IMG/VR virus record: IMGVR_UViG_3300049574_000143
Span: 4,358-68,357 of that record
From: a virus
Taxonomy: Duplodnaviria > Caudoviricetes
DNA: 64,000 nucleotides
Reading direction: 5' to 3' (one strand)
The translations under genes and the position numbers were made by a program. Below, in pieces: positions 3,701 through 64,000 of this stretch (positions are counted from its first letter, which is position 1; each line of letters starts with the position of its first letter). The notes beneath the pieces are model-generated. The model ran no database searches and was not told where the DNA came from. It saw only the letters and a program-made list of their open reading frames with translations.

Positions 3701-3753
3701 ATCGGTACATATGGTGCGCATAACTGGTCGATAGTGTTTGGTTGTGTTGGATC

Positions 3754-8248: not shown

Positions 8249-8739
8249 GGGAGTCCTACCGCGCCATCCGGCCAGATGATCGTGTTGATCTCCGTGGTGT
8301 TCCGGACCTGACGAATGCACCCTTCGCAGGGTTCGCAAGAGACGTACATGGTGCCGCCCGTCATCAGGCCAGCACCACGCCTCTGGGCGTCAGCAAGTGC
8401 CGTCTGTTCCGCATGACTGGCGATGCAGGCACCCCTGCCGGTGTCGTACGACGAGCCGGGCGGGACGGCGTCCGGGCAGGGCCAGTCCCGACCACAGGCG
8501 CAGACGGGGCCGATCTTGTACTTGCTATTGAGGCCGCGCTCCACCAGCTTCCAGTGCCGCCCTCGCGGGCAGGCGCCCTCCAGGCAGCCCTTCTCGCCCG
8601 GCCGGGTGCCGTTGTAGCCGAGGCCGACGAATCGCTTGTCGACCACGATCAGGGCGCCGACCTTCCGGCGGGTGCAGTCGCCCATCCTCGCCAGCCAGTC
8701 GGCGCCGTCCAGGTGCCATTCGTCGCGGTCGGGCCTCAC
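8245..8739 (-). CDS. Deoxycytidylate (dCMP) deaminase
   Basis: CTRRKVGA, GYNG, HAEQ and PCEGC zinc-deaminase motifs; GTGA overlap start. Confidence 0.88.
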   Translation of the reverse strand: MRPDRDEWHLDGADWLARMGDCTRRKVGALIVVDKRFVGLGYNGTRPGEKGCLEGACPRGRHWKLVERGLNSKYKIGPVCACGRDWPCPDAVPPGSSYDTGRGACIASHAEQTALADAQRRGAGLMTGGTMYVSCEPCEGCIRQVRNTTEINTIIWPDGAVGLP

Positions 8740-43407: not shown

Positions 43408-43491
43408 GTTCAGTTGTCCTTCTTTGCGGGATGCGGGTTTAAGGACCGGACGAGGGCACCCGCGAACACCTCGTCCGATCCAGTCAGTTGG

Positions 43492-44372: not shown

Positions 44373-44422
44373 TTGGCTTTCTCCTTGTTCAGTTGTTATT
44401 CAGTTGTGGGCTGCTTTTGAGG

Positions 44423-47421: not shown

Positions 47422-47451
47422 TTTTCAGTTGTCCTTTTTCGGTTGTTTTGC

Positions 47452-48348
47452 TCAGATGCCGTTGAGCGCCATCCAGCGCTCCCTGGCGTTTTGGGACATG
47501 CCCGTCGAGGTGCCCGCCTGGGCGGCGTCGTCCGGGCCTTCTTCGCGGGATTCGCCGGCGTCCTCGGCCCCGTCGGGCTGCTCGGAGGTGGCGTCCTCGC
47601 TGGTCCGCTCCCCGTCGGGAGCGGAAGTCTGGTGGGGGTTACCGAGACAGCGGCAGCTCTCGGAGCCGTCGCACTCGTCGTCGGCCAGGTTGCGGCCGAC
47701 GTATTCCATGACCTGCTCGGCGGTGTAGCCCGACTCTTCGAGCTGGTCGACCGCGGAACGAAGGCCAACAGAGGTCTGCGTGTAGGCAGGGAAGACGACC
47801 GGGCCGGCCTCGATCATCCGGACCTCTTTGATGGTCCGCTGGAGTGGCCCGCGCTCCTCGCCGTTCACGTCCTTGGTGTCGCCCCAGAGCATGTCCTGAA
47901 GCTCACGCTTCGACGTGATCTCCTTGCCGTTCTTGTCGGTCCAGGAGTCGCGAACGACACCGAACTTGATCGACATGCCGGAGACGGCGCCGGACTCGAT
48001 GGCCTGGCGAATCGGTTCTGCATGATCGAACAGCTCGCCCTCGACGTAGAGGCCCTGAGGGTCCTCGCGGAGAGTGGTGTAGTTGCCGATCGGCAGGGAG
48101 CCGAAACGGGCGTCGCGGCCGTGGTCGAACTGCATGACCGGCTTGCGCTCGGCCAGGGTCTTCGTGAAGGCGCCGGGCGCCATGCGCTCGGTGAAGGAGC
48201 CCTCCCAGGACCTGATCTGCGTGTCCTGATTGAAGACGGCGGCATACCCGACCAGCTTCTTGCCGGTGCCCTCTCCGTCTGCACGCTCTTCGAAGGTGAA
48301 GTCGACCGTCCTCGAAACGAGGCCGTCGAATAGCTTCCTCTTGGTCAT
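47452..48348 (-). CDS. HK97-family prohead protease
   Basis: LVGYAAVFN, F.E..APGAF, FDH, D..GLYVE, MSIKF, EAGPVVFPAY. Confidence 0.93.
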   Translation of the reverse strand: MTKRKLFDGLVSRTVDFTFEERADGEGTGKKLVGYAAVFNQDTQIRSWEGSFTERMAPGAFTKTLAERKPVMQFDHGRDARFGSLPIGNYTTLREDPQGLYVEGELFDHAEPIRQAIESGAVSGMSIKFGVVRDSWTDKNGKEITSKRELQDMLWGDTKDVNGEERGPLQRTIKEVRMIEAGPVVFPAYTQTSVGLRSAVDQLEESGYTAEQVMEYVGRNLADDECDGSESCRCLGNPHQTSAPDGERTSEDATSEQPDGAEDAGESREEGPDDAAQAGTSTGMSQNARERWMALNGI

Positions 48349-49894: not shown

Positions 49895-50060
49895 CGCCTC
49901 CCTTCTCGATGTCTATGAAGCCGGCGAGCAGAATTCCGAGGCCGCCGCCGGTATAAAGCCCTATCGGACCGAATTGCCAGGTGACGCCCGTCATTGCGAG
50001 CAGATAGAAGAGGACTTGCAGGAGAAGAACCTGCGCCTTGCTCACTCTTACCTCCTGTAA
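49884..50060 (-). CDS. Small membrane protein between TerL and portal
   Basis: Hydrophobic LLLQVLFYLLAMTGV...GILLAGFI; GTG start near 50060 after GGAGG. Confidence 0.5.
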   Translation of the reverse strand, partial: LQEVRVSKAQVLLLQVLFYLLAMTGVTWQFGPIGLYTGGGLGILLAGFIDIEKGGDDG

Positions 50061-51625
50061 ACCCACGGGGCTGACGCAGGCTGCTCGTTGTTCAGCTTGC
50101 GATATCCCCATGCGGCGAGAGTGGCGCTCACGAGAGGGGAGATTTGAGATGTGGAGTTCTTCTTGTCCCACACCCATTTGCTGTCACCCAGGTCGCGCTT
50201 ATCCGCGCCGGAGACGGCAGTGGAAAGCGACTTCTGGCCGATGTGAACGATCTTCGGGACTTCCCCTTTTCGCGGCACCACGCCGACGTGGAATTCACCG
50301 CAGGAGACCGCGTACTCGTTCGCCTTTGGCGAGAGCACGGTGATGCCGAAGTTCTCCAGCTCCTCTATGAACGAAGAGGCCTGGTCGGTCTGGCTGATGA
50401 TGACCGCGCTCGGCTTGAGCGACGTCCAGAGCTGACGGATCCGGGAGGTCACCCAGTCGGTGCCCTGCCGGTAGTCCTCGGTCCAGACGCCGGCGCTATT
50501 CTCGCTGCCCGTCACCTCGACGTGGAGCATGCCCTCGTCGTTGATGCCGGCCGCGGTGATGCAGGACCACTTCCGGTCCTGGGAGACGTCCACAGCGAGC
50601 GTCCAGATGTTCTTCCGGCCGCCCATGAGGATCTGGCTCTCGGGCTGCTCCTGGCGCTGCCAGCTGGCCTCGTCGATGACGCTCCAGGCGTCACCCTCGA
50701 CCGGCCACCGGCCGACCGACAGGCGCTCGACCTTGAAGGCGTCCTCAGACATGGCCCGGCGCTCGTTGGCCACCGTGTCGTACGAGATGCGGATCCCGTA
50801 GCCGGGGTTGGCCTTGGCCCAGGTCTCCTCGTCGTCCAGGTCGTCGTGCTCTTCGCAGCCGGGGAGGCACATGTCGTCGCACGCGTCGGCCGACCATTCC
50901 GCGAAGAAGAGGAAGGGGTCGAGCTCGCCGCTGAGACCCTTCATGGCCCGGCTGCGTACGCGGCCGAACTCGAAGGCGTCCTCCAGGCCGGCGGAGCCGG
51001 TGTACCAGATCTGGGGGTTCGGCTGGGCGGACAGCGTCGGCCGCAGCGCCATCATCGACTCCTCGTCGAGGAACATCGCCTCGTCGAGGACGACCAGCTG
51101 CGGGCTGAAGCCACGTCCGAGCTTCTTGGTACGGGTCTTGAAGAGGAGGCGCGCACCGTTCTTGAGCTCGATGCGCTCCTTGCCGTTCGCCTCGTAGCAG
51201 CCCTTGAGCTCCTTGTTGAGGCTCGGCGTGTCCTGGATTAGCGAGGCGACGCGCCGGAAGTGCTCACCGGAGGTGGCGAAGTCCTGGGCGGAGTGAATGA
51301 TGGTCTTCTCGCCGAAAAGGAAAAGGCCCGCCAGTTGGCGAGCCTCCAGGATCGATCCCTTTCCGTTCTGTCTTGCTACCACCAGGCCCACATCCCTGGC
51401 GGCCCACATCCGTTCGTACTCCTTCGTGAACGGGTTGTGGTAGGTCTCGCTCCGCTGCGAGCAAGCCTGCTCCAGTACCCACTGCTGCCAGGGGTCCAGA
51501 TTCAGACCGGCCATTGCGGCGAGGTCTATCGCCTCACGACCCAGAGTTGAAATTCCCATAGCCGGGGGGTGATTGATCCGGGGCCGCTGGTGCCCGAGAC
51601 GCCTTCCGTTGCCGTATGCGCTCAA
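50048..51625 (-). CDS. terL: Terminase large subunit
   Basis: VARQNGKG Walker A, LVVLDEA Walker B, YTGSAG, ANPG, LAVDVS, ISPLVSATLA. Confidence 0.95.
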   Translation of the reverse strand: MSAYGNGRRLGHQRPRINHPPAMGISTLGREAIDLAAMAGLNLDPWQQWVLEQACSQRSETYHNPFTKEYERMWAARDVGLVVARQNGKGSILEARQLAGLFLFGEKTIIHSAQDFATSGEHFRRVASLIQDTPSLNKELKGCYEANGKERIELKNGARLLFKTRTKKLGRGFSPQLVVLDEAMFLDEESMMALRPTLSAQPNPQIWYTGSAGLEDAFEFGRVRSRAMKGLSGELDPFLFFAEWSADACDDMCLPGCEEHDDLDDEETWAKANPGYGIRISYDTVANERRAMSEDAFKVERLSVGRWPVEGDAWSVIDEASWQRQEQPESQILMGGRKNIWTLAVDVSQDRKWSCITAAGINDEGMLHVEVTGSENSAGVWTEDYRQGTDWVTSRIRQLWTSLKPSAVIISQTDQASSFIEELENFGITVLSPKANEYAVSCGEFHVGVVPRKGEVPKIVHIGQKSLSTAVSGADKRDLGDSKWVWDKKNSTSQISPLVSATLAAWGYRKLNNEQPASAPWVYRR

Positions 51626-51875
51626 GATCGTTCACCTCCCCTGAATTCGGATCCGGGATCGCCTCGATGTCGTCCAGAAGCGTCTTCAGGCGCAGGACGA
51701 GGGAAGCTGTATCGCCAGTGCGGAGCTGCGACATGCGGCATGTCTTGCAGCGATGACCTTCGAGCTCGTGGGCGACGAAATCCCGCAAGGCGATGAGCTT
51801 GTCGCGGTAGTCGCCCTTCTTCATCGCCTGCTCGACGCTCTCGCGTTCGGCGAAGTACTCGGCTTCGTCGTTCAC
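51534..51875 (-). CDS. terS: Terminase small subunit
   Basis: Immediately upstream of and overlapping terL; AGGAGG RBS; A.L..RL..LL..IE...EVNDLERIRQRK. Confidence 0.7.
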   Translation of the reverse strand: MNDEAEYFAERESVEQAMKKGDYRDKLIALRDFVAHELEGHRCKTCRMSQLRTGDTASLVLRLKTLLDDIEAIPDPNSGEVNDLERIRQRKASRAPAAPDQSPPGYGNFNSGS

Positions 51876-51883
51876 TTGACCTC

Positions 51884-52606
51884 CTAGAAGGCGACCAGGA
51901 CGCCGCAAGAGTCGTAAGTACTGGGTGCCGCAAACGGGGGTTGGAGAAGGCCGGTCCAGGCGGCCTTGGTCCCAACTGTTCCGCCACCGGTCGTGGTGGC
52001 CGCACCCGAGGTTCCGCCAGACGCGTTGACGGTTCCGTTGGAGTCGACAGTCGCCCCGATCGGGCGATAGGTGTCAGAGTTTCTGGCGTCAGCGACGCGC
52101 TGGGTGTCGGCTGGACTATATGAACCGAAGGTGTAAACGGCCGAGTTGACGGTATGCCCCGCGAAGAATGAAACCCGCCACAACCCACTGGTCGAGTCCG
52201 TAAGGGTGGCCGAAGTAGCCGTTCCGCCGCCTGTTGTAACCCCTGATTGCCCGTGCTGTACGAACGGGGTGGTGGTGTCGGTGCCACGGTAAGCTGAGCA
52301 GAGATAGAGGCTACTGCCGGTTGTATTCGAGTCGGCGGTGACGCTGTAGGTACTCTCGCCGGCCGCAACAATGTGCCAACGGACCTCGTAGCCCATATTG
52401 CCGCTACTGCCGCCATGATCAGCGTCCAGGAGTGTCCAGCCGGAAGGCCAGGTAAATGAACCGGCACTGACCGCCGTCGACTTGGTGGACATCACCATGG
52501 CCACGAGGAGGTCCCCGGTGGTCGCCGAAGTTGGCTTAGTGATGGTTACGGCGCTGGAGTTGAGGACAGTCGCTGAGGTTGATGTTGCAGGAAAGGAGAT
52601 GGCCAT
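51884..52606 (-). CDS. Virion appendage protein (one KP..GD..PxGW module)
   Basis: MAISF...ITKP...TGDLLVA...WPSGWTLL. Confidence 0.75.
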   Translation of the reverse strand: MAISFPATSTSATVLNSSAVTITKPTSATTGDLLVAMVMSTKSTAVSAGSFTWPSGWTLLDADHGGSSGNMGYEVRWHIVAAGESTYSVTADSNTTGSSLYLCSAYRGTDTTTPFVQHGQSGVTTGGGTATSATLTDSTSGLWRVSFFAGHTVNSAVYTFGSYSPADTQRVADARNSDTYRPIGATVDSNGTVNASGGTSGAATTTGGGTVGTKAAWTGLLQPPFAAPSTYDSCGVLVAF

Positions 52607-52609
52607 CGA

Positions 52610-54175
52610 CTACCGCCAGACCCCGACGTAGTCCGTGGTGAACGTGAAGGCCGAGCCTGAGGGCTGCGGGTGGTAATACCCGTCGCTCAGGCTCAGGTTG
52701 AGGTTGATGTAGGCCAGGAAGTCCGACCCGACGCCCTCGCCGTCCTGATAGACGCGCGCGCCGTTGACGTACCAGTCGCAGGACGTCTCACCGAGGAGCG
52801 TGCCGATCGTCACCCACGTGTCGTGGGCTATCGCGCCGGAGTCGGTGTAGTCGGTACCCGACTCGTTGACGTGGTTCGACAGCTCCAGGAGGTGAGCGTT
52901 GTCCGGGTGGTACTCGAAGATGTCGACCTCGCCGTGGCCGCCCAGACTGCCCGACCCCCACGTCCAGAGCGCAGGCCATGCGCCGGACGCCGCGGGGAGC
53001 TTGAAGCGCCCCTCCAGGTAGTCGCCGGTCTGGACCTGGAAGCCGCCGCCGGTGACGCCCTCGGTGGTCAGGAAGGCCGTGTACCAGGCCTCCTTGGTGC
53101 CACCCTGTGGGAATCCGGAGATGGTGAAGCCGGCGTCCTGGGCGGTGAACACGCAGTTGCCGCCGGACGAGGCGACCTGGCCGGTGTGGAAGTAGTCCAC
53201 CTTGTGGTCGCCCGGGTTGTCCGGGCCGTTGTTCGGGAACGAGCTGGTGTTATTGATCCGCCATTTCGTGGTGTCGATCGTCGTCGCGAAGTCGTCATAG
53301 AAGACGTTCGACTTGCCCAGTCGGGTGTCACTGCCGGTGCCCGAGGCGCTTACCGCGACATGCCCCAGCGTCGCCGCCAGTGACCCGGAGGCCTCGGTTC
53401 CGCCGCCCGAGCACTGGGCGCCCAGGATGCAGGAGAAGGAGCCGGTGACGCTGTCGCCCTCGCTGCCGGCCAGGCTGGCGGTAACGTGGTTCAGGGTGCA
53501 GCCGAAGCTGCCGGACGCCGCGGTACCGCCGGAGGCAGCGGCCAGGACGAGGGTGAGCTCGGAGACCTCGGACGAGTGGTTGACGGTCATGTTGCCGCTG
53601 GCGGTCGACGTGGAGTCCGAGAGCGCCATGCCGGCGCCGTAGTCGGACGAGCCGGCCGAGGCGTAGAAGGACGCCACCCGGGAGGTGCCCGGCATCGTGA
53701 TCGTCAGGCTGGCAGTGCCGGAATCCGGCCTGGCGCCGCCGATCATGACGCTCACGCCGCCGGTGGCGATGCCGGTGGGGGCGGCGACGGCCTTCGAGGT
53801 GACGTTTGACGCCGTCGTGCTGCCGGTGTTCGTGATCGGGCTGGTGTTGTCGACGCCGGTATACCGGGCGATCAGCGCGGTGATGTCGTCGATGGTCGGG
53901 CTGAAGGAGAGCGAGTAGCTGGAGCCCTCGCTGCTCGCGATCTTGTACCAGACCCACAGGGCTGAGCCCGTGCTGCCCACGTAGGGCGAGCCCGAGACCG
54001 CGGTCCAGCCGGACGGTGCGGTGACCGTGGGGCCGGACTGGGAGGTCGGCGAAGTCTCTACCGCGAGGATGAGGAGGTCGCCGTTGGCGGTAGAGGCCGG
54101 CTTGTTGATGCTCAGCGAGCCGACATAGGTATTCGAATGACTCGCCGTGCTTGACGTGCCGAACGCTACGGCCAT
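52610..54175 (-). CDS. Appendage protein with C-terminal GH16 glycoside hydrolase
   Basis: N-terminal module; E.RFKLP...WPALW..G...GEVDIFEY (ExDxxE). Confidence 0.85.
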   Translation of the reverse strand: MAVAFGTSSTASHSNTYVGSLSINKPASTANGDLLILAVETSPTSQSGPTVTAPSGWTAVSGSPYVGSTGSALWVWYKIASSEGSSYSLSFSPTIDDITALIARYTGVDNTSPITNTGSTTASNVTSKAVAAPTGIATGGVSVMIGGARPDSGTASLTITMPGTSRVASFYASAGSSDYGAGMALSDSTSTASGNMTVNHSSEVSELTLVLAAASGGTAASGSFGCTLNHVTASLAGSEGDSVTGSFSCILGAQCSGGGTEASGSLAATLGHVAVSASGTGSDTRLGKSNVFYDDFATTIDTTKWRINNTSSFPNNGPDNPGDHKVDYFHTGQVASSGGNCVFTAQDAGFTISGFPQGGTKEAWYTAFLTTEGVTGGGFQVQTGDYLEGRFKLPAASGAWPALWTWGSGSLGGHGEVDIFEYHPDNAHLLELSNHVNESGTDYTDSGAIAHDTWVTIGTLLGETSCDWYVNGARVYQDGEGVGSDFLAYINLNLSLSDGYYHPQPSGSAFTFTTDYVGVWR

Positions 54176-54183
54176 GGAAACTC

Positions 54184-54567
54184 CTAAGTGACGTTCGCCC
54201 AGAAGGTCACAGACATGTCCGAGGGCGTGGTTCCGACGGCCGTGACGTTGACGGTGAGGGTGTCGCCGGCGGCCAGTGACAGGCTCTGTGTCGTGTGCCC
54301 GGAGGACGTGGTGACGTTGAGCGTGGAACCGTCCGAGCTACCGCCGTTCTTCGACGGCCGGATGGTCGTGGTGCCGCTGCCGGCGTTGAGGATCGCGTAC
54401 ATGTCGACGACGGTCATCGCCACCGGGGCGACGAACTTGGGCAGCTTGACGCCGGTGGTGACAGTGCTCGACAGGAAGAACGGGATGGCGACCGAGTTGG
54501 TAAGGTCAGCCTTCCTGACCAGGTCGGTAGAGCCGCTCGCCGCGGGCCCAAGTGACTTCATGGCCAT
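54184..54567 (-). CDS. Small beta-sandwich structural protein
   Basis: Thr/Ser-rich, L.AGD.L.V.V..VG pattern; in the structural block. Confidence 0.7.
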   Translation of the reverse strand: MAMKSLGPAASGSTDLVRKADLTNSVAIPFFLSSTVTTGVKLPKFVAPVAMTVVDMYAILNAGSGTTTIRPSKNGGSSDGSTLNVTTSSGHTTQSLSLAAGDTLTVNVTAVGTTPSDMSVTFWANVT

Positions 54568-54581
54568 GCGGGTTGGGCTCC

Positions 54582-55706
54582 TTAGCCGATGACGGTTGCG
54601 CGTATCGCGTTGGACGCCGGCGCGGTCGCGAAGGTGAGAGTGACGTTGTTCGAGTCGGTGGCGACCCAGTCCGTGATGAACGCCGAGTCGTCCGCGGTGA
54701 GCCGGAGCGTGACGCTGACGTCCTTGGTGCCGAGGTTGTGGTTGACCGTGATCGAGGTCGATGAGCCGTTGCCGTAGGTCTGCGAGAACTTCCGGGCGAC
54801 AACCGAGGTGTCGACCTTCAGACCACTGGCCGAGTTGGACAGGCCGGAGCCGGTGTCGAGCTTGACGGACAGGGCCGAGCCGCCGCCGCCCTGGAGGCCG
54901 TTACCGGCTGCCGCTGCGGCGATCCGCAGGGCGTCGCTGGAGACTTCCAGGCCCGTCGCGGAAGCCGTACCAGTCTGGACGTCCAGGACGCCGGAGGTGA
55001 GGGCCAGGGCGGCGCCGGCCACCTGTGAGGCGAGGGAGACGGCGTCAGCCGAGACGGTGATGGAGCCGTCCGTGTTGCCGACGGCCAGAGCGGAGCCGCC
55101 GCCGCCGGTGAGGCCATTCCCGGCCGCGGCGGTGGCGATCCGGACGTTGCCGCCAGAGACCTCCAGGCCGGTCGCGGAGGCGGTACCCGTGGAGACGTTG
55201 AAGGTGTTGGCCGGCGACTCGGTCAGGCCGCTGCCGGCCGTGTAGGTCGATCCGGCGCCACCGAACTGCACCCAGTTCTGGGCGGTGGTGCCCAGGGTGG
55301 CGACCTCGGCGGTCTGCGTGAAAGCCTTGTCGCCGCCGGCGGATCCCTCCGTGACGAACACGGTCGCCGACTTGCACTCGGCCGCGGTGTCCATGTCCCC
55401 GGCGCGCGTCAGGGCCACGGCGGAGCCGTTGAAGACGTAGATGCCGTTCTCGGCCGCGGTCGTCTGGTTCTTCAGAAGGATGCGGTCGTTTGCCGAGATC
55501 GTGACCGTGTCGAAGGTCGCGGTGCCCGGGTTGGAGACCGTGACGTTCGCCGTAGACGCGACACGCACCGGCTGCTTCCAGGCCAGGCCCTGGAGGTTGT
55601 TATCGACGTACGCCTTGGTGGCGAGGTCACTCGAAGACGATGGGTCGGCCGCGTTCTGCGCCCGCTGACCCTGAAGGTCTATGCCGTTACCGAACTTCTG
55701 AGCCAT
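54582..55706 (-). CDS. Fibre-like structural protein
   Basis: KF.NGIDL..ADP...ATKAYVD, WK.PVRVAST, AG.GL repeats, C-terminal HNLG module. Confidence 0.8.
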   Translation of the reverse strand: MAQKFGNGIDLQGQRAQNAADPSSSSDLATKAYVDNNLQGLAWKQPVRVASTANVTVSNPGTATFDTVTISANDRILLKNQTTAAENGIYVFNGSAVALTRAGDMDTAAECKSATVFVTEGSAGGDKAFTQTAEVATLGTTAQNWVQFGGAGSTYTAGSGLTESPANTFNVSTGTASATGLEVSGGNVRIATAAAGNGLTGGGGSALAVGNTDGSITVSADAVSLASQVAGAALALTSGVLDVQTGTASATGLEVSSDALRIAAAAAGNGLQGGGGSALSVKLDTGSGLSNSASGLKVDTSVVARKFSQTYGNGSSTSITVNHNLGTKDVSVTLRLTADDSAFITDWVATDSNNVTLTFATAPASNAIRATVIG

Positions 55707-56038
55707 TAGCTAATAACCGCCTTTCCCGATGTCGGGGTCGCAAAAGTTATGGACACCGTGTTCGGGTCCGACTGGTCTGTATCTGAGATGATTTCGTCAC
55801 CGGAGTCGTCTACAACGCGTACGAAGGCAATCCGGTTCAGGTTGTGCGTGATGGTCCAGGTGGCGGCCGGCACTGACTGCGTGTGCTCGATTACCGAACC
55901 GCCGGCGGCCCCGGGAACACCCTGCGGCCCCTGAATTCCCTGGGGGCCGGCGGCCGTCAAAGTAAGACCGCTGCTTACCTTGGTGACTACGACCTTTGTG
56001 TCTTCCTGGACGACGACGAGCTCTTCGGGCTCGCTCAC
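55706..56038 (-). CDS. Structural protein with short collagen repeat and HNL module
   Basis: GPQGIQGPQGVPG; QSVPAATWTITHNLN...ITFATP.SG.A. Confidence 0.75.
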   Translation of the reverse strand: MSEPEELVVVQEDTKVVVTKVSSGLTLTAAGPQGIQGPQGVPGAAGGSVIEHTQSVPAATWTITHNLNRIAFVRVVDDSGDEIISDTDQSDPNTVSITFATPTSGKAVIS

Positions 56039-56394
56039 CGGGTCACCCCCAGCGAAACCGAGGCCTTGCCCTCCAGGAGCCGGGTCACCTCGCCGCCGGG
56101 GGATTCCACCGTGAGATCCCAGTCGGCGGCCTTGAAGACGAGCGGAGAGGTCACCGACGGGGCCAGCTTGATGCTGATGACGCCGCTGCCATCCAGGGTG
56201 CCGATCGTCTCGCCTGTCGCCAGGTTGTCGGAGTCGAAATCGACCAGGGTTGACGCCGATTCCGCGGTCTGTCGGACCTGGAAGCGCACCCGGAAACCCG
56301 TAAGGTCGATCGGGTTCCCGTCGGGGTCGTTCCAGGTGACATACAGGGGGAAGGTGGCCCCCTGCTCGATTACGATGTTGTGCTTGGCAGCCAC
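56035..56394 (-). CDS. LtfC/BppU-like fibre-attachment protein
   Basis: IEQGATF...W.DPDGNPIDLTG...QVR...RLLEGK..VS. Confidence 0.7.
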   Translation of the reverse strand: MAAKHNIVIEQGATFPLYVTWNDPDGNPIDLTGFRVRFQVRQTAESASTLVDFDSDNLATGETIGTLDGSGVISIKLAPSVTSPLVFKAADWDLTVESPGGEVTRLLEGKASVSLGVTR

Positions 56395-56413
56395 CCTTTC
56401 ACCCTTTCCGCTA

Positions 56414-56779
56414 CTAGACGCCGGGCGCGAGGAAGATGAGGACGGTGCCGGGAACCGGGTCGTGGAGCGGACCTTCCTCGCCCTCGCCGGGGAAGAAGTA
56501 ATTGATAACCACTTCGCCCCCCTCGGTTTCGGCGACGGTGAAGTTCACTACCGCCGGATCGACGCCCAGCACCGCTACACCCTGAACCGAATCGCCCGGG
56601 TAGTGAACGGTGAGGCTGTGCTCCTCGTGCGACGGGTCCGTGAAGCTCACGTAGTTCGTCTGAACGGTCAGGGCCGGACCTGCCGGGCCGTCAGCTCCGG
56701 CGGGGCCGGTCGCGCCGGCCGGGCCGGTATCGCCCTGCGGGCCCTTGAAGTACTCGACGACGTAGTCAATAAAGCCCAC
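56414..56779 (-). CDS. Structural protein with collagen-like repeat
   Basis: GPQGDTGPAGATGPAGADGPAGP. Confidence 0.7.
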   Translation of the reverse strand: MGFIDYVVEYFKGPQGDTGPAGATGPAGADGPAGPALTVQTNYVSFTDPSHEEHSLTVHYPGDSVQGVAVLGVDPAVVNFTVAETEGGEVVINYFFPGEGEEGPLHDPVPGTVLIFLAPGV

Positions 56780-56792
56780 GGATTACTCTCCC

Positions 56793-59432
56793 TTATGTCG
56801 ATTGAGACAGGTTCGATTGGGTGCTGGATTCGAAGGCCTGAACTACCGTGCCGGAGATACTGATTGCACTGGCCACGGTGGAGCTGAACCCGTGAATCAT
56901 GTTCCCGAGGAATACGTTTCCGGTTGCGTTAGAGCCCTCTTGCTTGAAGGCCTGGGCAGCTTCCGTGCCACTTCCCTCGGTGCAGATCGTGTTGGCCATC
57001 ACCACGTTGCCCGTATTGCCAGCTGCGCCGGAAATGGCGATTGCGGCGTTCGTACCAGAAGTGCCACGGGCACCCTTGACGAAGTTACCAACGATCTGAT
57101 TCTGAGCGGCGCCACCGCTGACATAGAACGCGCGGTCGCCGGCTCTGCGAATGTTGTTTCCGGAGAAGACGTTGTAACTGGCTCCAACTGCGATGTCGAT
57201 GCCCCTACCGGCCGCGTCCACGATGGTATTTCCGTGGACGGAGCCCCCCTGTACGTACGACAGTGAAATGCCGTACTCGGGTGCATTCCTGATGACGTTT
57301 CCGGTGATGGTCGGGTTATTCACTAGGCCGGTGGATTCACCGAATACGCGAATCGCCGCCACGCCACCCGTCGTGCCGGTCGCCATCTCGAAGGTGTTCC
57401 CGGTGATGGTCAGGTTCCAGATGTCCTGAGTGGCGCCAGTCTGCACACCGGTACGGGTTAGGGTGTTTGTGGTTGTCCCGGTGTCCGTCCAGATCGGGCG
57501 CACCTCGACACCCCATCCGCCTACGAAGTGGTTGTCGGAGATGATGGAGTTGTTCCAGCTATACCCCCGGACGCCCTTCTCGATCGTCTCCACATAATTC
57601 CCGGTGAACCGGATGCTGTCGTGAGCCGTAGTGGTCCCGATGGTTCCGTTGTGCGACCCGATGGCGCGATTCCATGCGGTAGTGCCAGGCATGTACGACT
57701 GGACGAAGCTGCACGAGCGGACCGTGATGTCCTTGCATGGCGTGTCGTCGTACGGCCCGAAACTGCCGAAGACTCCGGAATCCTTCGCCAGGTCGAGCTG
57801 AATGCACTCCGAGTGGCGTGCGTTGTACTGAACCGTGCCGGCGAACCGGCAGTTGTCGAACAGCACCTTTCGGCAGGCGTTGATCTCTACGCAGTGCTGG
57901 TTCTGAGAGACGTCCCGGACCTCAACGTCGCGGAAGGTGATGCTGTGGCCGTGGCCGAAGCTGAAGGCGCCACCCGAACTGGCCGTACCCCACGACATCG
58001 GGGTGTCGAAGGCCCCGAGCCTGGCCGTGGTGTCCTTGACGATGATTCCGGCCTTGGTCGCCTGGTAGTTGAAGGCGTCCGTGAAATCGTGCGTCAGCGT
58101 CGTACCGACATAGCCCCGGATCTCCTTGCCCATGACCTGGACCTGGAGCACGTTGCCCGACGCAACAGCCTGCGTCGCGGTGGGAGTCATCGCCGTGTCG
58201 ACGCCAGCAACTACCTTGCCCAGACGGGCGTTTCCATCCGTGTGGCGGACGAAGTACCAGTAGTTGCTGCTGTCGACGTAGCGGAAGACCAGGCCGGCGT
58301 TCCCGGCCGTAGACATCGTCACCGTCGGGTTGCAGTCCTGGATGACGTCGACCGTGGAGATGTTCGTACCGGCACCCGGGGCGTACGCCAGGTTCGTATT
58401 GATGCCCAGGGTGCCGGAGCGCGAGGTCCAGGGGTAGTTCGAGCTCGTCGTGCCGAGCGAGGTCGAGCTGTTGGACCGGGTGAAGCTGTCCGCCCAGATC
58501 GAGGCCGACGAGGAGAAGTTGTCCAGGCGTGCCGTGGTGTCGAAGACCACCAGGCCCACCTTGCGGTTGGCGGTGAAGCCCGCCAGGTCCGCGGTGTCGT
58601 GCGTCAGGGTCGTGCCGACGTACGCCCGGATCCGGTTGCCGAAGAAGACCACCGTGAGGGTGTTGCCGGCCGAGACCGCCTGAGTCGCCGTCGGCGCCAC
58701 CACGGTCTCCACGCCGCGCACCCAGTAGCTGAGGCGCGCGTTTCCGTCGGTGTGCCGGACGTACTGCCAGTAGTTCTGGCCGTCCGCGAGGCGGAAGACG
58801 AGGCCGGCGTTCCCGACGGTGGGGATCGTGCAGGACAGCGTCCCGTTCGGCCAGGACTTCACGGTGGAGATGTTCGTGCCGGCCGCGGCTGCGGACACCG
58901 TGTTGGAGGTGATCCCGAGGCAGCCGGCGGTCGAGGTGCCGTCATCCCGCATGGATTCGTCGATCCACGTCTGGCCGGTGTCCATGACGCCCAGAGTGTG
59001 CGGCGCCGAGGTGTTGGACCGGGTGAAGGTGTCGGTGGCCAGGCTGACCGTCGAGGTGGAGCAGCGCAGGTCCCACACGCCGCCCTCGATGACGATGTTG
59101 CCGTGACCGGTGTAGCCGGCCCGGTTCTGGCCGCTGTCGCCGTTCCAGGCCATCGAGACGCCACCGGTGTCGTTGTACCGGTGGATCTCGGCGCCCGGGA
59201 GCAGGGTCAGCCGCACGTTGGACCGGATCTTGAAGGGTGGGTCCATGTGCCGGTAGATCCCCTTGGGTACGATGACCTGGCCCCCGCCGGCGTTGAAGGC
59301 GGCGTCCAGGGCTGCCTGGATGTAGGGGCTGTCGTTGGTGCTGTCGTCGCCCTTGGCGGCGTACTGCTTGACGTTGAAAACAGCCGGGGAGGACTCCCCG
59401 GTGTTCGTTATGGGTGCAACGAACTTGGGCAC
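56793..59432 (-). CDS. Tailspike-like right-handed beta-helix protein (pectate-lyase-like) with duplicated lectin-like insert
   Basis: FNVKQYAAKGDDSTNDSPYIQAALDA...GG.VIVP.GIY; ITGN/FSGN/IVGN helix turns; two ~170-aa DxFTRSN domains. Confidence 0.85.
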   Translation of the reverse strand: MPKFVAPITNTGESSPAVFNVKQYAAKGDDSTNDSPYIQAALDAAFNAGGGQVIVPKGIYRHMDPPFKIRSNVRLTLLPGAEIHRYNDTGGVSMAWNGDSGQNRAGYTGHGNIVIEGGVWDLRCSTSTVSLATDTFTRSNTSAPHTLGVMDTGQTWIDESMRDDGTSTAGCLGITSNTVSAAAAGTNISTVKSWPNGTLSCTIPTVGNAGLVFRLADGQNYWQYVRHTDGNARLSYWVRGVETVVAPTATQAVSAGNTLTVVFFGNRIRAYVGTTLTHDTADLAGFTANRKVGLVVFDTTARLDNFSSSASIWADSFTRSNSSTSLGTTSSNYPWTSRSGTLGINTNLAYAPGAGTNISTVDVIQDCNPTVTMSTAGNAGLVFRYVDSSNYWYFVRHTDGNARLGKVVAGVDTAMTPTATQAVASGNVLQVQVMGKEIRGYVGTTLTHDFTDAFNYQATKAGIIVKDTTARLGAFDTPMSWGTASSGGAFSFGHGHSITFRDVEVRDVSQNQHCVEINACRKVLFDNCRFAGTVQYNARHSECIQLDLAKDSGVFGSFGPYDDTPCKDITVRSCSFVQSYMPGTTAWNRAIGSHNGTIGTTTAHDSIRFTGNYVETIEKGVRGYSWNNSIISDNHFVGGWGVEVRPIWTDTGTTTNTLTRTGVQTGATQDIWNLTITGNTFEMATGTTGGVAAIRVFGESTGLVNNPTITGNVIRNAPEYGISLSYVQGGSVHGNTIVDAAGRGIDIAVGASYNVFSGNNIRRAGDRAFYVSGGAAQNQIVGNFVKGARGTSGTNAAIAISGAAGNTGNVVMANTICTEGSGTEAAQAFKQEGSNATGNVFLGNMIHGFSSTVASAISISGTVVQAFESSTQSNLSQST

Positions 59433-59441
59433 AAGTCCTCC

Positions 59442-61697
59442 TTACGAGCTGTAGAGCACGACGACGCGGTACGAGAGGGATGCGGGAGCCGAAGTGAAGC
59501 CCACGGTCACCGTGTTGAGGGTCGAGTGCGTGATATCCGCCTCGACTTCCTGGAAGGTGGTGTTGTCGTAGACAGTCACCGAGACATCGCGCGAACCGAA
59601 GTTGTGCGAGACGGTGTAGGACGTGTTCGTCCCGTCACCGATATCGGTTACGAACTTCAAGAGATCGTCCCCTCCCACGGGTCCGGCGCCCGTCAGGGCG
59701 AGGAGTGCCAGAGTGATTGCCGCGCGGGGACTGCTCGCCGCGAGATCGAAGGTGCTCGACCCGACGAAACGGGGCGAAGGGCAGTTTCCGGTGTAGACGA
59801 AGAAGCCGCCGCCGGTGCCGTCCGTGAAACCGTTGTCTGCGCGCTCTGTCAGGTTGTCCAGAGCCCCGACATTGGTGTCCAGGGCCGCCTCCGCGGAGGC
59901 AGAATCGATGCCGTGAGAGCCGATGTAGACGACCATCTCGCCGCGGCCCTGAGTCGAAATCGAGGGCATCGTGACGAGGGTGTCGCTGACATTGCTCGCG
60001 GAGCCGCCCTCGACGTCGATCGGGTCGGTTTCGCTGATGTCACAGCCCCGGAAGGCGTGAATCTGGGCGCCGACATGGTCCCCGGAGAAGGAAATCGTCG
60101 GCGCAGCCTCGGATCCGGTGAAAACCGACCAGAAAACGCTCAATTTCGTGTCTTGCGAGCCAGCAGAGGTTGCCTGAGGGCTCGAAACGACCGGAGTCCA
60201 CCCATCGGGGGCCGAAACGGTGTCCGAGGGCCCGGATTCGGCTATCAGGAGCCAAACATCGCCCGGAAGGCGCCCGGAAGGCAGATTTACCGTCAAATCC
60301 GAGGTTCCGGAGGCAAAATCGCCATTTCCGGCCCAAATTACGTCCTGATACCCCTCAAAATCGGGGTTCAGGGACGGAAGTGTCATCCCGAGAGGCCCGC
60401 CCTGCACTGCATCCGAGGTGCCGGTCAGGGTTGCATCCACCCTGGGAAGGCGGGCGTCCAGGGTGACGAGAGGCTCTATCGCCCCGGCTAGCTGCGAGGT
60501 GATCGCCGGGAGGCCTATCTGGACCTGACTCGGAATGCCGCCCTCGCTGAACATGAGGCAATCCAGCTTCGGCAGCTTGTACTTGTTCACGCCGACGACG
60601 CCACCGAAGAACAGGGACACCTGCTTTGCATAGATGTCCGTCATGTCGTCCTGCGAGATGCGGAAGGCCCGCTTCTCGTCCTCGATGACGATGACGTTGT
60701 CCCCGTGTGGCCGGGTCTCGACCTCGAAGAGCGACGTAAGTTTCGGCAGGGTGCAGCTGATCGGGCCCGTCGGGTTCACGTATGCCGTGACGCTCGACAC
60801 CAACGGGTGGGGCAGTGTCGACGAGACGCCGCCACCCGGAGCACTGGATGCGGCGAGCGCCGAAGTCAGGCTCGGAAGGTGGGCGCCGATGCTTCCGGAC
60901 GGAGGCGCGGCCGTTCCCGTGAACTGGCCGGCGACCGGGTGCGGCAGGGTCACGCCGACCGGGCCTGACGGGATCATCCTCGTCGCCGCGAAGGTGGCCC
61001 TGACGGACGGTAGCGTGGAGCCGACATCGCCGATCGCGGGAGTGCCCAGGGTCTTGAGGACAACCGTGCGCTCGATCGAGCCGGTCAGGGAGAGGCTGGA
61101 GGCGAAGGAGGCGCCAGAGTGCGCCCCGATGCTCAACTCCCCGTTCGAATCGGCCGATTCAACGAAGTACTGAGTGGAGTTGCCGCGGTTGGACGAGGCC
61201 TGACGGGGGGTACCGCCGCCACCGACGGTGAAATTGCCCTCGGAGTTTACGGTCGACGTCCTGCCCGTACGGAACCAGACGAACCAGCCAGCGGCCGTGG
61301 ACGTGGCACTCGGGGCCGAAGAGGACGTAGTGCCAGCCGTCTGCGCCTCGGTGTGCACGTCGATCGGGTTGGCCGTGTCCACACCCCTGTAGGCGACTAT
61401 CTGCACGCACATCGGCGTGAGGTCGCCGCCGTCGTCCGTAAAGGTGTACGACGTGCCTTCCGAGGCGGCCACCTTGTAGAAGATGGAGCTCGTGAGCACC
61501 GCCCCGGTGTTCTGGTACCGAGAGAGCAGCGTCCAGCCGGCAGGGGCCGAGTGCGTTACGTTGCCGGACTGGCAATAGGCGAGCATGACATCGCCGTTGG
61601 CTACGCCAGTCGGCTTCGCGCAGGAGACGCTGGAAGTGTTGTTGGAGCTGCCGGTCCATGCCGGGGAGCGAGTCGAGGCGACGAACGAGATGGCCAT
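59442..61697 (-). CDS. Multimodular appendage protein
   Basis: Two KP/LP..GD..PxGW modules, xLPxV linker repeats, C-terminal HNFG module. Confidence 0.8.
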   Translation of the reverse strand: MAISFVASTRSPAWTGSSNNTSSVSCAKPTGVANGDVMLAYCQSGNVTHSAPAGWTLLSRYQNTGAVLTSSIFYKVAASEGTSYTFTDDGGDLTPMCVQIVAYRGVDTANPIDVHTEAQTAGTTSSSAPSATSTAAGWFVWFRTGRTSTVNSEGNFTVGGGGTPRQASSNRGNSTQYFVESADSNGELSIGAHSGASFASSLSLTGSIERTVVLKTLGTPAIGDVGSTLPSVRATFAATRMIPSGPVGVTLPHPVAGQFTGTAAPPSGSIGAHLPSLTSALAASSAPGGGVSSTLPHPLVSSVTAYVNPTGPISCTLPKLTSLFEVETRPHGDNVIVIEDEKRAFRISQDDMTDIYAKQVSLFFGGVVGVNKYKLPKLDCLMFSEGGIPSQVQIGLPAITSQLAGAIEPLVTLDARLPRVDATLTGTSDAVQGGPLGMTLPSLNPDFEGYQDVIWAGNGDFASGTSDLTVNLPSGRLPGDVWLLIAESGPSDTVSAPDGWTPVVSSPQATSAGSQDTKLSVFWSVFTGSEAAPTISFSGDHVGAQIHAFRGCDISETDPIDVEGGSASNVSDTLVTMPSISTQGRGEMVVYIGSHGIDSASAEAALDTNVGALDNLTERADNGFTDGTGGGFFVYTGNCPSPRFVGSSTFDLAASSPRAAITLALLALTGAGPVGGDDLLKFVTDIGDGTNTSYTVSHNFGSRDVSVTVYDNTTFQEVEADITHSTLNTVTVGFTSAPASLSYRVVVLYSS

Positions 61698-62701
61698 CAG
61701 TCGTCAAGCCCCCTCGACTGGACGATGATTCGGCGCGAATCGTCGAATTCGACCGCGATAACGCGGACACCGAAGACGCGTGTCTCGCCCTGAATTTTGA
61801 TCGTCGGCAGCACCGCTATCGACATGGCGCCCCTGGCGACCGTCGCGCCGGCTATGGCCGAGGACATCTTCGGCAGGGTCGAGGTGATTCCACCTGAAGC
61901 CGCAGCAGGCTGGCCTGCGCCCACACCCACAAAGGCGACCGACGGCAGAGTGACGGACAGGGTGGAGTCATTGTGCGGCTCGCCGGCGAAGTCGGACGAG
62001 ACCACCGGAAGGGCGGAGACTACATTTCCCGAGACCGGTGTCGCCGCCGACTTCAGGGCGATCGTCGCCTCAAGGTTGTCGGACTCGGCTTGCGAACAGC
62101 TGACGGCGAGGCCGGCCTTACTGCCCGAGGTGGTGAAGTCGGCGTTGTCGGTGTACTGCGAATTCGAGTAGCAAACGGAACCGCCGGAGTAGACGCCGAC
62201 GTCGACAACCTCGGTGACGCCGCCATTCGCCGTCGAGAACGTGGGGACCGTGCTGCCCACGTAACGGCAGGCCCGAATATAGACCAATCGGCCGTCCGTG
62301 ACGGCAACGGTAGCTGTGGGGCCGGTGTGGGGTTCCGAAAGGGAACCCGACATGAGCTGCGCGTAATTGGTCCCGATCGGGGTCGTGTTATCCACGCCAG
62401 ACCAGGCTGAGAGCGACAGCACTAGCGGGAAGGCTGATGGAACGCTGAAGGTGTAGCTGGTTGGCTCGGAGGCGCCGGCAACCTTGTAATACACGCCGGT
62501 CGACCAAGAGTCGCCGGTAGTTCCAGACGCATTGACGTAGAAGAGCTGCGTCCAACCCGAAGGACGCGTCACCGTCTGGTTATTATTAGTAAAGACGGCG
62601 AGCAGGAGGTCTCCGGAAATTACCCCGGCCGGCTTGTTTGCCGTTACCGATGTCCCGCTCGCCGCCGTCGCGGTTGCTGCCGTGCCGCGAAGGGCGACCA
62701 T
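61697..62701 (-). CDS. Appendage protein (one module plus LP repeats)
   Basis: ANKPAGVISGDLLLAVF..RPSGWTQL; SALPVV, VTLPSV, STLPKM. Confidence 0.8.
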   Translation of the reverse strand: MVALRGTAATATAASGTSVTANKPAGVISGDLLLAVFTNNNQTVTRPSGWTQLFYVNASGTTGDSWSTGVYYKVAGASEPTSYTFSVPSAFPLVLSLSAWSGVDNTTPIGTNYAQLMSGSLSEPHTGPTATVAVTDGRLVYIRACRYVGSTVPTFSTANGGVTEVVDVGVYSGGSVCYSNSQYTDNADFTTSGSKAGLAVSCSQAESDNLEATIALKSAATPVSGNVVSALPVVSSDFAGEPHNDSTLSVTLPSVAFVGVGAGQPAAASGGITSTLPKMSSAIAGATVARGAMSIAVLPTIKIQGETRVFGVRVIAVEFDDSRRIIVQSRGLDD

Positions 62702-62742
62702 GTCTCCCGACCTCCTAAATCAGCGGCATGGCAAGGTCGTTA

Positions 62743-63057
62743 TCAGACCTCGGGGTTGAGGTAATTCATGACGACATCCCGCTCGTAGACAGAGTCATCG
62801 ACCGCCTCACAGATCAGGCGGAGCACTGCCTGAATCGGCCCCGACGTCTCGTCCGTACTGAGCTCCCAATACCACCGGTTCCGCACGGAATAGGTCTCAT
62901 CAGCCTGCGGGTAACAACCGTTGACCCTCACGGTGTCGGGCACCTGAAAGCCGCCACTGACTGCTCGATATCCGGGCGGTACGTCGATGTAGAACTGCTC
63001 ACTTGACGCAGGGGTGCTCACGTTGACAACGGACGTAATTATGACGCGATTCTGCAT
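62743..63057 (-). CDS. Hypothetical structural protein
   Basis: PPGYRAVSGGF..V..YP pattern; AAGGAG RBS. Confidence 0.65.
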   Translation of the reverse strand: MQNRVIITSVVNVSTPASSEQFYIDVPPGYRAVSGGFQVPDTVRVNGCYPQADETYSVRNRWYWELSTDETSGPIQAVLRLICEAVDDSVYERDVVMNYLNPEV

Positions 63058-63081
63058 GGATTCTCCTTCTCATTACCCGTA

Positions 63082-63504
63082 TCAGCTGGTCGGCATCGTC
63101 ACCGTGCCGGAGGTGATAGTCACGTTGACGCCTGAAGTGATCGAGGTCGTGTTCAGGTTCAGCTGCTGGCCGGACGTACCGACCGACCCCTGGAGGACCA
63201 CCGTGGTTCCGTCCGACTTGAGCAGCCGGAAGTACACGGCGGTTCCGGTCGTGCTGGCCGGAACGGTCAGGGGCACGCCCGCCGTACCGCCGGCCATGTC
63301 GATGACTCCGCCGGACGCCGACCCGAAGGCACTTGCGCCGAGAGTGAAGGTGGCCAGGGCGCTGCCGGTCGCGGCCGTGTCAGCGGTCGCCGGCTCCGAG
63401 ACTCCGGTTCCGCCGTAGATGACGATCTTTCCGCCGGAACCGACGGTCGTGTTGACAGCGTTGGCCAGGGCGTTCGCCGTGGCCGTGGCGAGCTTCGTTG
63501 CCAT
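63082..63504 (-). CDS. Conserved phage structural protein
   Basis: IYGGT..PATAD...LATFTL...GTA.YFRL..DG..VLQG.VG.SG..LNLNTTSI. Confidence 0.75.
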   Translation of the reverse strand: MATKLATATANALANAVNTTVGSGGKIVIYGGTGVSEPATADTAATGSALATFTLGASAFGSASGGVIDMAGGTAGVPLTVPASTTGTAVYFRLLKSDGTTVVLQGSVGTSGQQLNLNTTSITSGVNVTITSGTVTMPTS

Positions 63505-63522
63505 GGTTAATTCCCTATTCAG

Positions 63523-63801
63523 TTATCGCTGCGTACAGCGGAGAGTGAAGGAGCGATCGTCTATTCGACCGTCCGAAGTGGTGATCCGATTGGTCACCCG
63601 ATAGACCTGACTCTCGGAACCCCCGGAAAGCCAGACGGTCGCAGTTCGCTGGGTATGCCCGAACGACTCAACGACAATTCCGGGGTCCACTATGAATTCC
63701 GTGTCGGTAATCGTCTCGAATTCACCCAGCCACAGCGACCAGTCGAAGATCCAATCGAGCGTGGCGTCGGGGTCTTTCTTGTGGTCCTTGAATACAGCCA
63801 T
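63523..63801 (-). CDS. Putative fibre-tail adaptor protein
   Basis: KDPDATLDW.FDW..WL...TVWLSGG...Y.VTNRITT.DGR..DRSF.L; AGGAGG RBS. Confidence 0.7.
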   Translation of the reverse strand: MAVFKDHKKDPDATLDWIFDWSLWLGEFETITDTEFIVDPGIVVESFGHTQRTATVWLSGGSESQVYRVTNRITTSDGRIDDRSFTLRCTQR

Positions 63802-64000
63802 CTATTCAACCTCCTTTTCGGCTGAATAGCGACCTACAAGCTGGGACCTGAGCCGGCCAGGGACCTCGGGGAGCTGCGTGCTCGACCCTCTTCGCGCCCC
63901 TGGCCGGAGTTTCTTTCGAGTGAAAGCTCTTTACCTGGAGTTTTTCCGGGGAAAGCTTGATCAACTCGTAAAATTTGCTGCGGGGAGAGAAAAGTTCGAC

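Follow-up and report, generated by a model that had tools for sequence, protein, structure and literature searches.

Fibres of the collar-rope-bead type have recently been solved and described for podophages (GP4, VP1, and A1002) and for myophages (Bas63 and Sf14). Their bead proteins have in common that they form dimers through which the extended chain of another protein runs. For A511, such an arrangement was described as 'beads on a string' (PMC10811340), and in A1002, 11 dimers are attached to the rope via beta-sheet augmentation (PMC13730344). In Bas63 and Sf14, a connector-mounted immunoglobulin (Ig)-like collar protein is extended at its N-terminus into a rope, around which whisker dimers are wrapped (PMC12609058, PMC11821841), and the whiskers of Sf14 hang from the neck adapter (PMC11821841). 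The authors of the Bas63 study considered this complex homologous to the fibre-tail adaptor (gp77)/rope/Fiber-1 complex of GP4; in GP4, the rope is a separate protein with five dimers (PMC12609058). GP4 gp77 is counted among the collar proteins. Here we describe a block of thirteen genes directly upstream of the terminase gene terS in a temperate, long-tailed actinobacterial siphophage (IMG/VR record IMGVR_UViG_3300049574_000143). The block is a real virion-appendage cassette, and with moderate confidence we read it as an exchangeable host-adhesion cassette with a collar-rope-bead fibre core and an optional, movable fibre/spike sub-module.

The window that was analysed comprises the last 64,000 bases of the 68,357-bp phage genome (G+C ~64%), in which nearly all genes are on the minus strand. 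The putative fibre core consists of the following features, to which a related gene from the conventional tail module is added.

63801-51884, minus strand: appendage block, filled exactly by thirteen open reading frames (ORFs), g01 to g13
63523-63801, minus strand: g01, 92 amino acids (aa), Gp77-type Ig-like fibre-tail adaptor (collar subunit)
63082-63504, minus strand: g02, 140 aa, small 'bead' protein of the whisker/Fiber-I/garland family
61697-62701, minus strand: g04, 334 aa, beta-sandwich module (residues 1-221), four Leu-Pro (LP) pseudo-repeats and a C-terminal motif; candidate rope
61742-62038, minus strand: repeat region of g04 (residues ~222-320)
59442-61697, minus strand: g05, 751 aa, module, five repeats, ETR-like motif, four repeats, second module and C-terminal knob
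52610-54175, minus strand: g12, 521 aa, module, three repeats and a C-terminal GH16-like glycoside hydrolase domain (residues ~292-521)
52913-52930, minus strand: GH16 catalytic strip E-V-D-I-F-E in g12 (E416, D418, E421); GEVDIFE corresponds to GEIDILE in 5wut_A and to GEIDIME in 4dfs_A
51884-52606, minus strand: g13, 240 aa, module and a short Thr/Gly-rich tail; the module matches those of g04, g05, g12, and t1329
34811-38800, minus strand: t1329, first gene after the tape measure gene, with two module copies (residues ~541-700 and ~709-920)

The g01 protein matched the Pfam family PF23148 (Gp77) with an E value of 1.7e-28 (99 bits, cut-off 27) and, over its full length, chain 8jou_D of GP4 (2.7e-4). 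It was the only block gene that was kept in all relatives (47-64% identity). The g02 protein showed full-length matches to two solved chains, 9rkv_A (2.5e-9) and 44nx_B (1.8e-4). The former comes from the tail-fibre model of myophage 7-7-1, in which the distal fibres bear small homodimeric 'garland' proteins; the latter is gp40 of A1002, a 'fiber dimer I' protein of 147 residues (PMC13730344). An AlphaFold2 (AF2) model of g02, with a predicted local distance difference test (pLDDT) score of 85, consisted of an N-terminal helix followed by a beta-sandwich, as in beads, which are composed of a helix and an incomplete beta-sandwich. The alignment figures for this model were 12.1 for the tail-fibre chain of 7-7-1, 9.4 for both the neck chain of Sf14 and the connector chain of Bas63, 7.3 for gp105 of A511, 7.1 for the arm of phi812, and 6.2 for Fiber I of GP4. 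No sequence similarity between g02 and GP4 gp80 was detectable by phmmer, and this match is one of fold only. From the homologies of g01 and g02 to the GP4, Bas63, and Sf14 systems, we concluded that the two proteins are the collar and the bead, and thus two of the three parts of a collar-rope-bead system.

An all-against-all comparison revealed a module of ~190-200 aa at the N-terminus of g04, g05, g12, and g13. A second copy is present within g05, where the modules start at residues 1 and 466, and t1329 matched g04, g05, g12, and g13 with blastp E values from 1e-5 to 5.6e-9. In the AF2 fold of g04, which was built with 29 homologs, residues 1-221 form a two-lobed beta-sandwich (pLDDT >90), and residues 222-334 are predicted to be disordered (pLDDT <50). 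A Foldseek search with the module model gave no match among solved structures and thus no convincing solved counterpart; since Foldseek found nothing, LamG identity of the module, a lead from the ESM Atlas, was not upheld.

Repeats with Leu-Pro (or Leu-Asn/Gly) cores every 19-24 residues are present in g04, g05, and g12. The cores are located at residues 231, 252, 276, and 298 of g04 (spacing 21, 24, and 22), at residues 229-317 (five cores) and 375-440 (four cores) of g05, and at residues 228, 251, and 270 of g12, for which the periodicity is clear (autocorrelation z 7.9). Among the 29 homologs of g04, whole repeat units are gained or lost, and the C-terminal motif ETRxFGxRV...D.SR is nearly invariant. 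By their sequence, g04, g05, and probably g12 are candidates for the third part, the ropes. The polarity would fit that of Bas63, with the N-terminus of the rope at the distal end and the C-terminus at the collar. From the published domain limits of A1002, we estimated ~24 residues of rope per dimer, as compared to the period of 19-24 residues found here.

The C-terminal part of g12 matched GH16 laminarinases in the PDB with phmmer E values between 9.7e-7 (5wut_A, the best match) and 0.01, over 60-130 residues only. As in the laminarinases 5WUT, 4DFS, and 3AZX, two strips align: WPALW at residue 400 with the conserved WPA(F/L)W strip, and GEVDIFE with the catalytic strip. No Pfam family was found for g12 at E <= 0.01. 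Because Pfam remained silent and the phmmer match spans 60-130 residues only, we termed the domain GH16-like. Unlike the GH16 laminarinases, it is too divergent for Pfam and is located at the end of a phage repeat protein.

Repeats of ~21 residues were found together with Gp77 domains or bead homologs in three other sequences, each an independent link between such repeats and the system. The metagenome protein P0170 (696 aa) is a natural fusion of a globular domain, repeats, an SGNH hydrolase (PF13472), ~9 repeats, and a C-terminal Gp77 domain, and the repeats directly before the Gp77 domain have a period of 21 (z 9.4). In the relative L008, a 636-aa repeat ORF (z 9.6) abuts Gp77, which is followed by terS with nothing in between. 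The ORF at 7387-8604 of locus L014 is gp22 of Mycobacterium phage Carcharodon, a Cluster N 'minor tail protein', which has ~9 tandem repeats of 21 residues (z 11.3) followed by a glycine-rich C-terminal half. Since gp22 is located two genes upstream of gp24, a 'virion structural protein' of the g02 type, rope-and-bead fibres may also exist in mycobacteriophages.

The locus differs from each of the solved systems. The GP4 complex of gp80, rope, and gp77 (PDB 8JOU) is from a podophage of Ralstonia and has one rope (PMC12609058, PMC13730344), whereas the siphophage has several candidate ropes that are fused to the beta-sandwich module of ~200 aa and, in g12, also to a GH16-like enzyme. Bas63 (PDB 9MT4) and Sf14 (PDB 9C39) are myophages with a connector-mounted collar-whisker complex. 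The Bas63 rope is the N-terminal extension of the collar itself, carries two dimers and has no extra domains, while here the putative ropes and the collar are encoded by separate genes and the ropes bear large distal domains; P0170 represents the fused form in nature. In A1002 (PDB 44NX), dimers of gp40, the protein matched by g02, and of gp41 are located on the nozzle-rope gp39. There, the rope belongs to the nozzle and the short tail is wrapped by the fibre, but a siphophage has no nozzle. The garland and connector dimers (gp014 of 7-7-1, gp125/gp127 of Milano, gp105 of A511, and gp8 of T4) are found at myophage baseplates or distal fibre ends, without a Gp77 collar.

No close DNA relative was found among deposited phages by megablast. 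The nearest deposited phages were Madraxi, Shagrat, Jflix2, and REQ1 of Rhodococcus equi Cluster CF, with identities of 48% for TerL, 55% for the portal protein, and 44% for t1329 (43-45% over the full length across these phages). In all four of them, a homolog of Gp77 is followed by ~4.4-6 kb of variable genes, some of which are annotated as 'minor tail protein', and then by terS and TerL. Only the edges of the block, g01 and terS, are conserved in these phages, and the interior is replaced. Slot and backbone are the same, but the CF phages have roughly 5-7 genes compared to 13 genes in 12 kb here, no detectable g02 bead, and the shared module in one gene only. For gene 3 of the CF phages, identity with a g02-like bead was considered and rejected at the sensitivity used. 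A conserved pair of Gp77 and g02 in Cluster N and L mycobacteriophages was also considered and rejected (BLAST E values of 2.9 and 0.42; hhalign probability <1%), and a lead to gp6 of Bxb1 yielded nothing useful. The left-end tail gene of Cluster CF has already been remarked on (PMC13313380), and similar left-end tail genes are known for Cluster A and for Arthrobacter Cluster AQ (PMC13313380, PMC5513430). These papers draw no connection to collar, rope, or bead systems.

Closer relatives were found among IMG/VR contigs (70-78% identity for TerL). Three of five close contigs carry genes of the block type upstream of terS, and the other two have almost no upstream sequence. The relative L005 contains, ahead of terS, homologs of g02, two g04/g05-like genes, g08, g09, g10, g11, and, directly before terS, a g13-like gene. 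No spike, g07, or GH16 gene is present there. A TerL search of GTDB genomes yielded no prophage relatives, and five Streptomyces chromosomal loci (L016-L020) were found via the g02 alignment. In all five, the block lies directly upstream of terS, and g01 and g02 are adjacent and followed by at least two module or repeat proteins; the remaining genes of the block are shuffled. A Streptomyces-type host of the phage is indicated by these sequences. Throughout the relatives, terS is located immediately 3' of the variable block.

The preliminary description of this DNA had regarded the position of the block as unusual. Since block-type genes were located at or upstream of terS in all relatives examined (four CF phages, three of five contigs, and five prophages), the position is not peculiar to this phage; the slot upstream of terS is the norm of the lineage, a caution against inference from gene position alone. 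Besides the g01 homolog that heads the block, three of the Streptomyces prophages have a second Gp77 copy or fragments of it directly before terS (L017:18067-18324, L018:17066-17323, and L016:16397-16528 together with 18389-18505). These extra copies suggest two collar species or a mixed ring.

The remaining part of the block contains a small gene behind g02 and a group of fibre and spike genes.

62743-63057, minus strand: g03, 104 aa, with ribosome site and a G+C content of third codon positions (GC3) of 0.72
56793-59432, minus strand: g06, 879 aa, right-handed beta-helix tailspike
56414-56779, minus strand: g07, 121 aa, short collagen-like protein with a G-X-Y run at residues 13-36
56035-56394, minus strand: g08, 119 aa, LtfC/p132-like Ig-type beta-sandwich; candidate second adaptor
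55706-56038, minus strand: g09, 110 aa, collagen-like stalk (G-X-Y at residues 31-48) and C-terminal knob
54582-55706, minus strand: g10, 374 aa, fibre with N-terminal domain, repeat stalk, and a C-terminal knob as in g05 and g09
54184-54567, minus strand: g11, 127 aa, match to phrog_38418 (6.5e-7); also located after g10 in L005 (39% identity)

For g03, neither a Pfam match nor a credible PHROG match was found, and L005 and L016-L020 lack a homolog. The spike g06 matched phrog_2234 (tail spike, 3.5e-75) and the Pfam family Beta_helix (1.9e-10, 41 bits, cut-off 25.9), as well as NosD and, at the N-terminus, Pect-lyase. Ahead of its beta-helix, a stretch of ~140 aa is duplicated in tandem (residues ~166-306 and ~336-475; 56% identity, E 9e-48), and the two inserts are possibly a pair of lectin-like domains. 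The matches of g07 to collagen and tail-fibre PHROGs are confined to its G-X-Y run.

In T5 and DT57C, the lateral fibres are held on the distal tail by a collar of LtfC/p132. The g08 protein matched phrog_1084 (1.7e-23) and phrog_3304, 'L-shaped tail fiber protein assembly' (1.2e-8). A profile of four sequences matched the PDB chains 26dk_M (4.7e-5) and, over nearly the full length, 8hqz_Q, the LtfC protein of DT57C (0.0086). The score against the Pfam family LtfC (PF23926) was 18.4 bits and thus under the cut-off of 27, and the single-sequence comparison with T5 p132 gave an E value of 0.44. Like the proteins of the T5 type (PDB 8HQZ and 7QG9), g08 is a beta-sandwich of ~120 aa with fibre genes next to it, but the similarity is weak, and the fibres that follow g08 are short, collagen-containing, and knobbed, and unrelated to pb1/LtfA of the T5 type.

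The C-terminal domain of g09 matched phrog_30556 (2.5e-13). A knob domain of ~70 aa is common to the C-termini of g05, g09, and g10; in g05, the last 70 aa matched phrog_2647/16122 and the C-terminus of g10. The order g08-g09-g10(-g11), with g09 directly after g08, was kept in L005, L019, and L020. In L020, the g08-g10 set follows the module proteins, and in L019, it precedes g01; a g06-like spike comes next in both. The sub-module of g08-g10, with or without the spike, is thus present, absent, or relocated among the relatives.

Most of what the preliminary description had said about the composition of the block was confirmed. The thirteen co-oriented, structural-looking genes before terS are present, and the conventional head and tail genes form a separate module at ~32.7-51.6 kb. 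The adaptor-like protein is g01, the collagen-containing proteins are g07 and g09, and the spike is g06. Of the proteins called LtfC/BppU-like, the LtfC-like type is supported for g08, and nothing in the block matched BppU. The GH16 assignment holds by phmmer and by the alignment of the catalytic strip in g12, though not by Pfam. The block has adaptors of its own, the Gp77-type g01 and, as a candidate, the LtfC-like g08, and several tips that, judged by their matches, would act on or bind carbohydrates (the beta-helix spike, the GH16 domain, the repeated beta-sandwich modules, and the knob domains).

The analysis itself established the homologies, the g02 fold, the repeats with their predicted disordered region, and the synteny; a bead-on-rope assembly, a lock at the collar, and a mounting site are added by analogy with the solved systems. 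In such an assembly, g01 would serve as the Ig-like Gp77 collar or adaptor and g02 would form dimeric beads. The ropes g04, g05, and probably g12, with tandem repeats of ~22 residues, would lack a fold of their own and gain order on being threaded through the beads. Their conserved C-terminal motif may lock into the collar. The knob and GH16 domains would be displayed at the far end together with the N-terminal beta-sandwich modules. The second sub-module, consisting of the LtfC-like adaptor g08, the knobbed fibres g09 and g10, g11, the spike g06, and g07, would add further fibres and a glycan-cutting spike.

If the block is such a cassette, a mount at the neck (the head-to-tail connector), as deduced from the homology with the collar-type adaptors of Bas63, Sf14, and GP4, is the likeliest, at roughly even odds. 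The phage would then have adhesion organs at the neck in addition to a plain tail tip. The solved Cluster L baseplates of phages Claus and Douge do not contain the Gp77 homolog of these phages, which argues for the neck. On the other side, the bead fold also serves at baseplates and distal fibres (A511 and 7-7-1). The suggestion of Gp77 as the unmodelled tail-tip protein of Douge was rejected; the authors of that structure suggest gp82. Given the homology of the core to collar and whisker systems, with the connector mount of Bas63 and the Ig-like collar of GP4, the 'collar or whiskers' option of the preliminary description is a live and arguably the leading reading, among the several forms of appendage that it had proposed.

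A more far-reaching version of the cassette is tentative, and we consider it rather unlikely as a whole. The phage would have two separate adsorption organs, the plain tail tip and a neck crown of 'armed whiskers' with lectin-like modules, a GH16 glycanase, and knobs. The bead-stiffened ropes of this crown, which differ in length, might make the first contact with the glycans of Streptomyces hyphae or assist the passage through them. The cassette upstream of terS would then be the main host-range switch, swapped by recombination between the collar gene and terS.

Several results weigh against a collar-rope-bead cassette. The periodicity of the repeats in g04 and g05 is statistically weak (z 2.0 and about 0), the C-terminal lock motif is missing from g12 and g13, and repeats of this kind could form a trimeric beta-spiral shaft instead. 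In the Rhodococcus CF phages and the Cluster L mycobacteriophages, no bead was detected next to Gp77, and Gp77 thus does not require this bead. Homologs of Gp77 and g02 in mycobacteriophages of Clusters L, N, and R sit among canonical tail genes, and the module also occurs in the tail-tip protein t1329; both points lean toward a tail mount.

The strongest competing explanation, to which we give about one chance in four, holds that g01-g13 are displaced minor-tail genes, encoded ahead of terS and not behind the tape measure gene. Their products would be ordinary side fibres, spikes, and receptor-binding proteins with the baseplate (t1329/t386/t299) as their docking site, and would form the only receptor-binding set of the phage; the repeats would then be trimeric shaft repeats and g02 a baseplate garland or connector. 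The gene order kept in all relatives with its 'minor tail protein' annotations, the left-end tail genes of Clusters CF, A, and AQ in the literature, the module in common with t1329, and the location of Gp77 and g02 homologs inside canonical tail modules are all in line with this. So is the conventional head/tail module at ~32.7-51.6 kb, which comprises portal, protease, capsid, connectors, major tail protein, chaperone, tape measure protein (TMP), and three distal tail genes, and whose genes are 30-70% identical to those of the Rhodococcus Cluster CF phages. No fibre or spike was detected within it by Pfam, PHROG, and PDB-sequence searches or in the ESM Atlas. The distal tail genes are t1329, t386 (DUF5047; phrog_1887, 'tail protein'), and t299; t1329 and t386 had no matches among PDB sequences, and t299 gave weak Atlas leads to BppU and baseplate-V types. 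In contrast, the Gp77-type collar of Bas63 is mounted on the connector and its GP4 equivalent is a collar, and, within the part of the literature covered (PMC12609058), no baseplate example was found. The baseplates of Claus and Douge, solved without the Gp77 homolog, and the fit of the P0170 fusion and of the rope polarity to the collar model also speak against baseplate docking.

A second, self-contained appendage, as originally proposed, is sustained only in part: the adaptors and tips are supported, while 'self-contained' is doubtful because the module of ~190 aa from g04, g05, g12, and g13 recurs twice in t1329. The preliminary description had also named the case that would speak against it, namely that the block is the sole fibre set in a widely conserved gene order. 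Since the slot is conserved across the relatives and had been remarked on in print (PMC13313380), this applies to the gene order in part.

It is improbable, in our view, that g08-g11, and above all g10, decorate the capsid as head fibres ('capsid hair'). This possibility arises from the match of g10 to 9nx3_A, a 'Capsid decoration protein' (4.2e-15), in which residues 32-180 and 283-374, and thus both end domains, were aligned, and from its match to phrog_2647, 'head decoration' (8.9e-62). Homologs of g10 are labelled as head decoration in Cluster C phages, but as tail fibre in phage E3 and cyanophages. The phage and paper behind 9NX3 were not found; neither the Douge paper nor the Jabs paper is its source. 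Moreover, the LtfC-like g08 and the collagen fibre gene always precede g10, and the spike follows in L019 and L020, which is the company of a fibre module. That the genes are non-virion morons for secreted or lysogeny-expressed glycan enzymes or adhesins is very unlikely: GH16 and beta-helix enzymes can be secreted and the cassette is as hypervariable as moron slots, but the block shares its orientation with the late operon and is translationally coupled to it, a scan from the block to terS gave no promoter or terminator signal above shuffles, 7 of the 13 products have matches among virion protein families or solved chains of virions, and inspection of the translations (by eye only) revealed no signal peptides.

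A collar-rope-bead kit in the Gp77-to-terS slot of actinobacterial siphophages appears to be new with respect to the literature covered, and so do several ropes side by side that are fused to binding modules and a GH16-like enzyme. If the cassette is of this type, temperate Streptomyces siphophages use this kit too, and the pre-terminase genes would have a concrete, testable architecture. In many actinophages, much of the unannotated 'minor tail' or hypothetical gene content ahead of the terminase would then be accounted for, and the interval from Gp77 to terS would be the place to seek and to swap host-range determinants of Streptomyces phages.

The borders of the block are formed by the following features.

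63802-64000, strand not applicable: non-coding leader, no ORF with high GC3, lower G+C content
51534-51908, minus strand: terS, match to phrog_1459 (1.7e-5), 42-68% identity in relatives; downstream boundary of the cassette

On the minus strand, the leader of ~200 nucleotides (nt) is followed by g01-g13, terS, TerL, the portal, protease, and major capsid protein genes, the connectors, the major tail protein, chaperone, and tape measure genes, t1329, t386, t299, and then the lysis genes. Within g01-g13, the intergenic spacing is -4 to +41 nt and GC3 is 0.69-0.92, and a ribosome site of the GGAGG/AAGGAG type is visible upstream of most ORFs. A possible ORF in the leader (g00, 63806-64000) was not coding by GC3. 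If the longest ORFs are taken, the start of terS lies 25 nt inside g13 and that of TerL (50048-51625) 92 nt inside terS; the true starts of terS and TerL are probably located further downstream.

At the other end of the genome (genome positions 1-4,580, outside the window), a non-coding stretch of ~730-1,050 bp with lower G+C content is followed by genes on the opposite strand. Genome positions 1-1050 and window positions 63802-64000 together form a non-coding stretch of lower G+C content (56-58%) between divergent genes. No terminal repeats and no ORF across the assembly ends were found. In all five Streptomyces prophages, homologs of the genes from the other end are located upstream of g01 on the opposite strand, which implies that the assembly ends fall within a divergent intergenic region and that the block opens the late operon. 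The stretch across the assembly ends probably harbours the late promoter as well as the packaging site or the ends of the genome.

The nonamer ACAACTGAA occurs, with at most one mismatch, 19 times compared to 5.7 expected occurrences, nearly all of them on the coding strand.

2691-63526 of the window, minus strand: nonamer ACAACTGAA sites, e.g. 47424-47432, 44388-44407, 43409-43417, and 63518-63526

Sites immediately precede the capsid, tail-tube, chaperone, and TMP genes as well as several early genes, and the motif could be a translation or RNA-processing signal. A copy with one mismatch lies directly before g02; as a hint only, this would be compatible with a high output of g02, as expected of a bead. 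At 45919-48348 of the window, the protease for capsid maturation (298 aa) and the major capsid protein (500 aa) have a gene each, and the Cluster CF relatives have them as one 'major capsid and protease fusion protein'.

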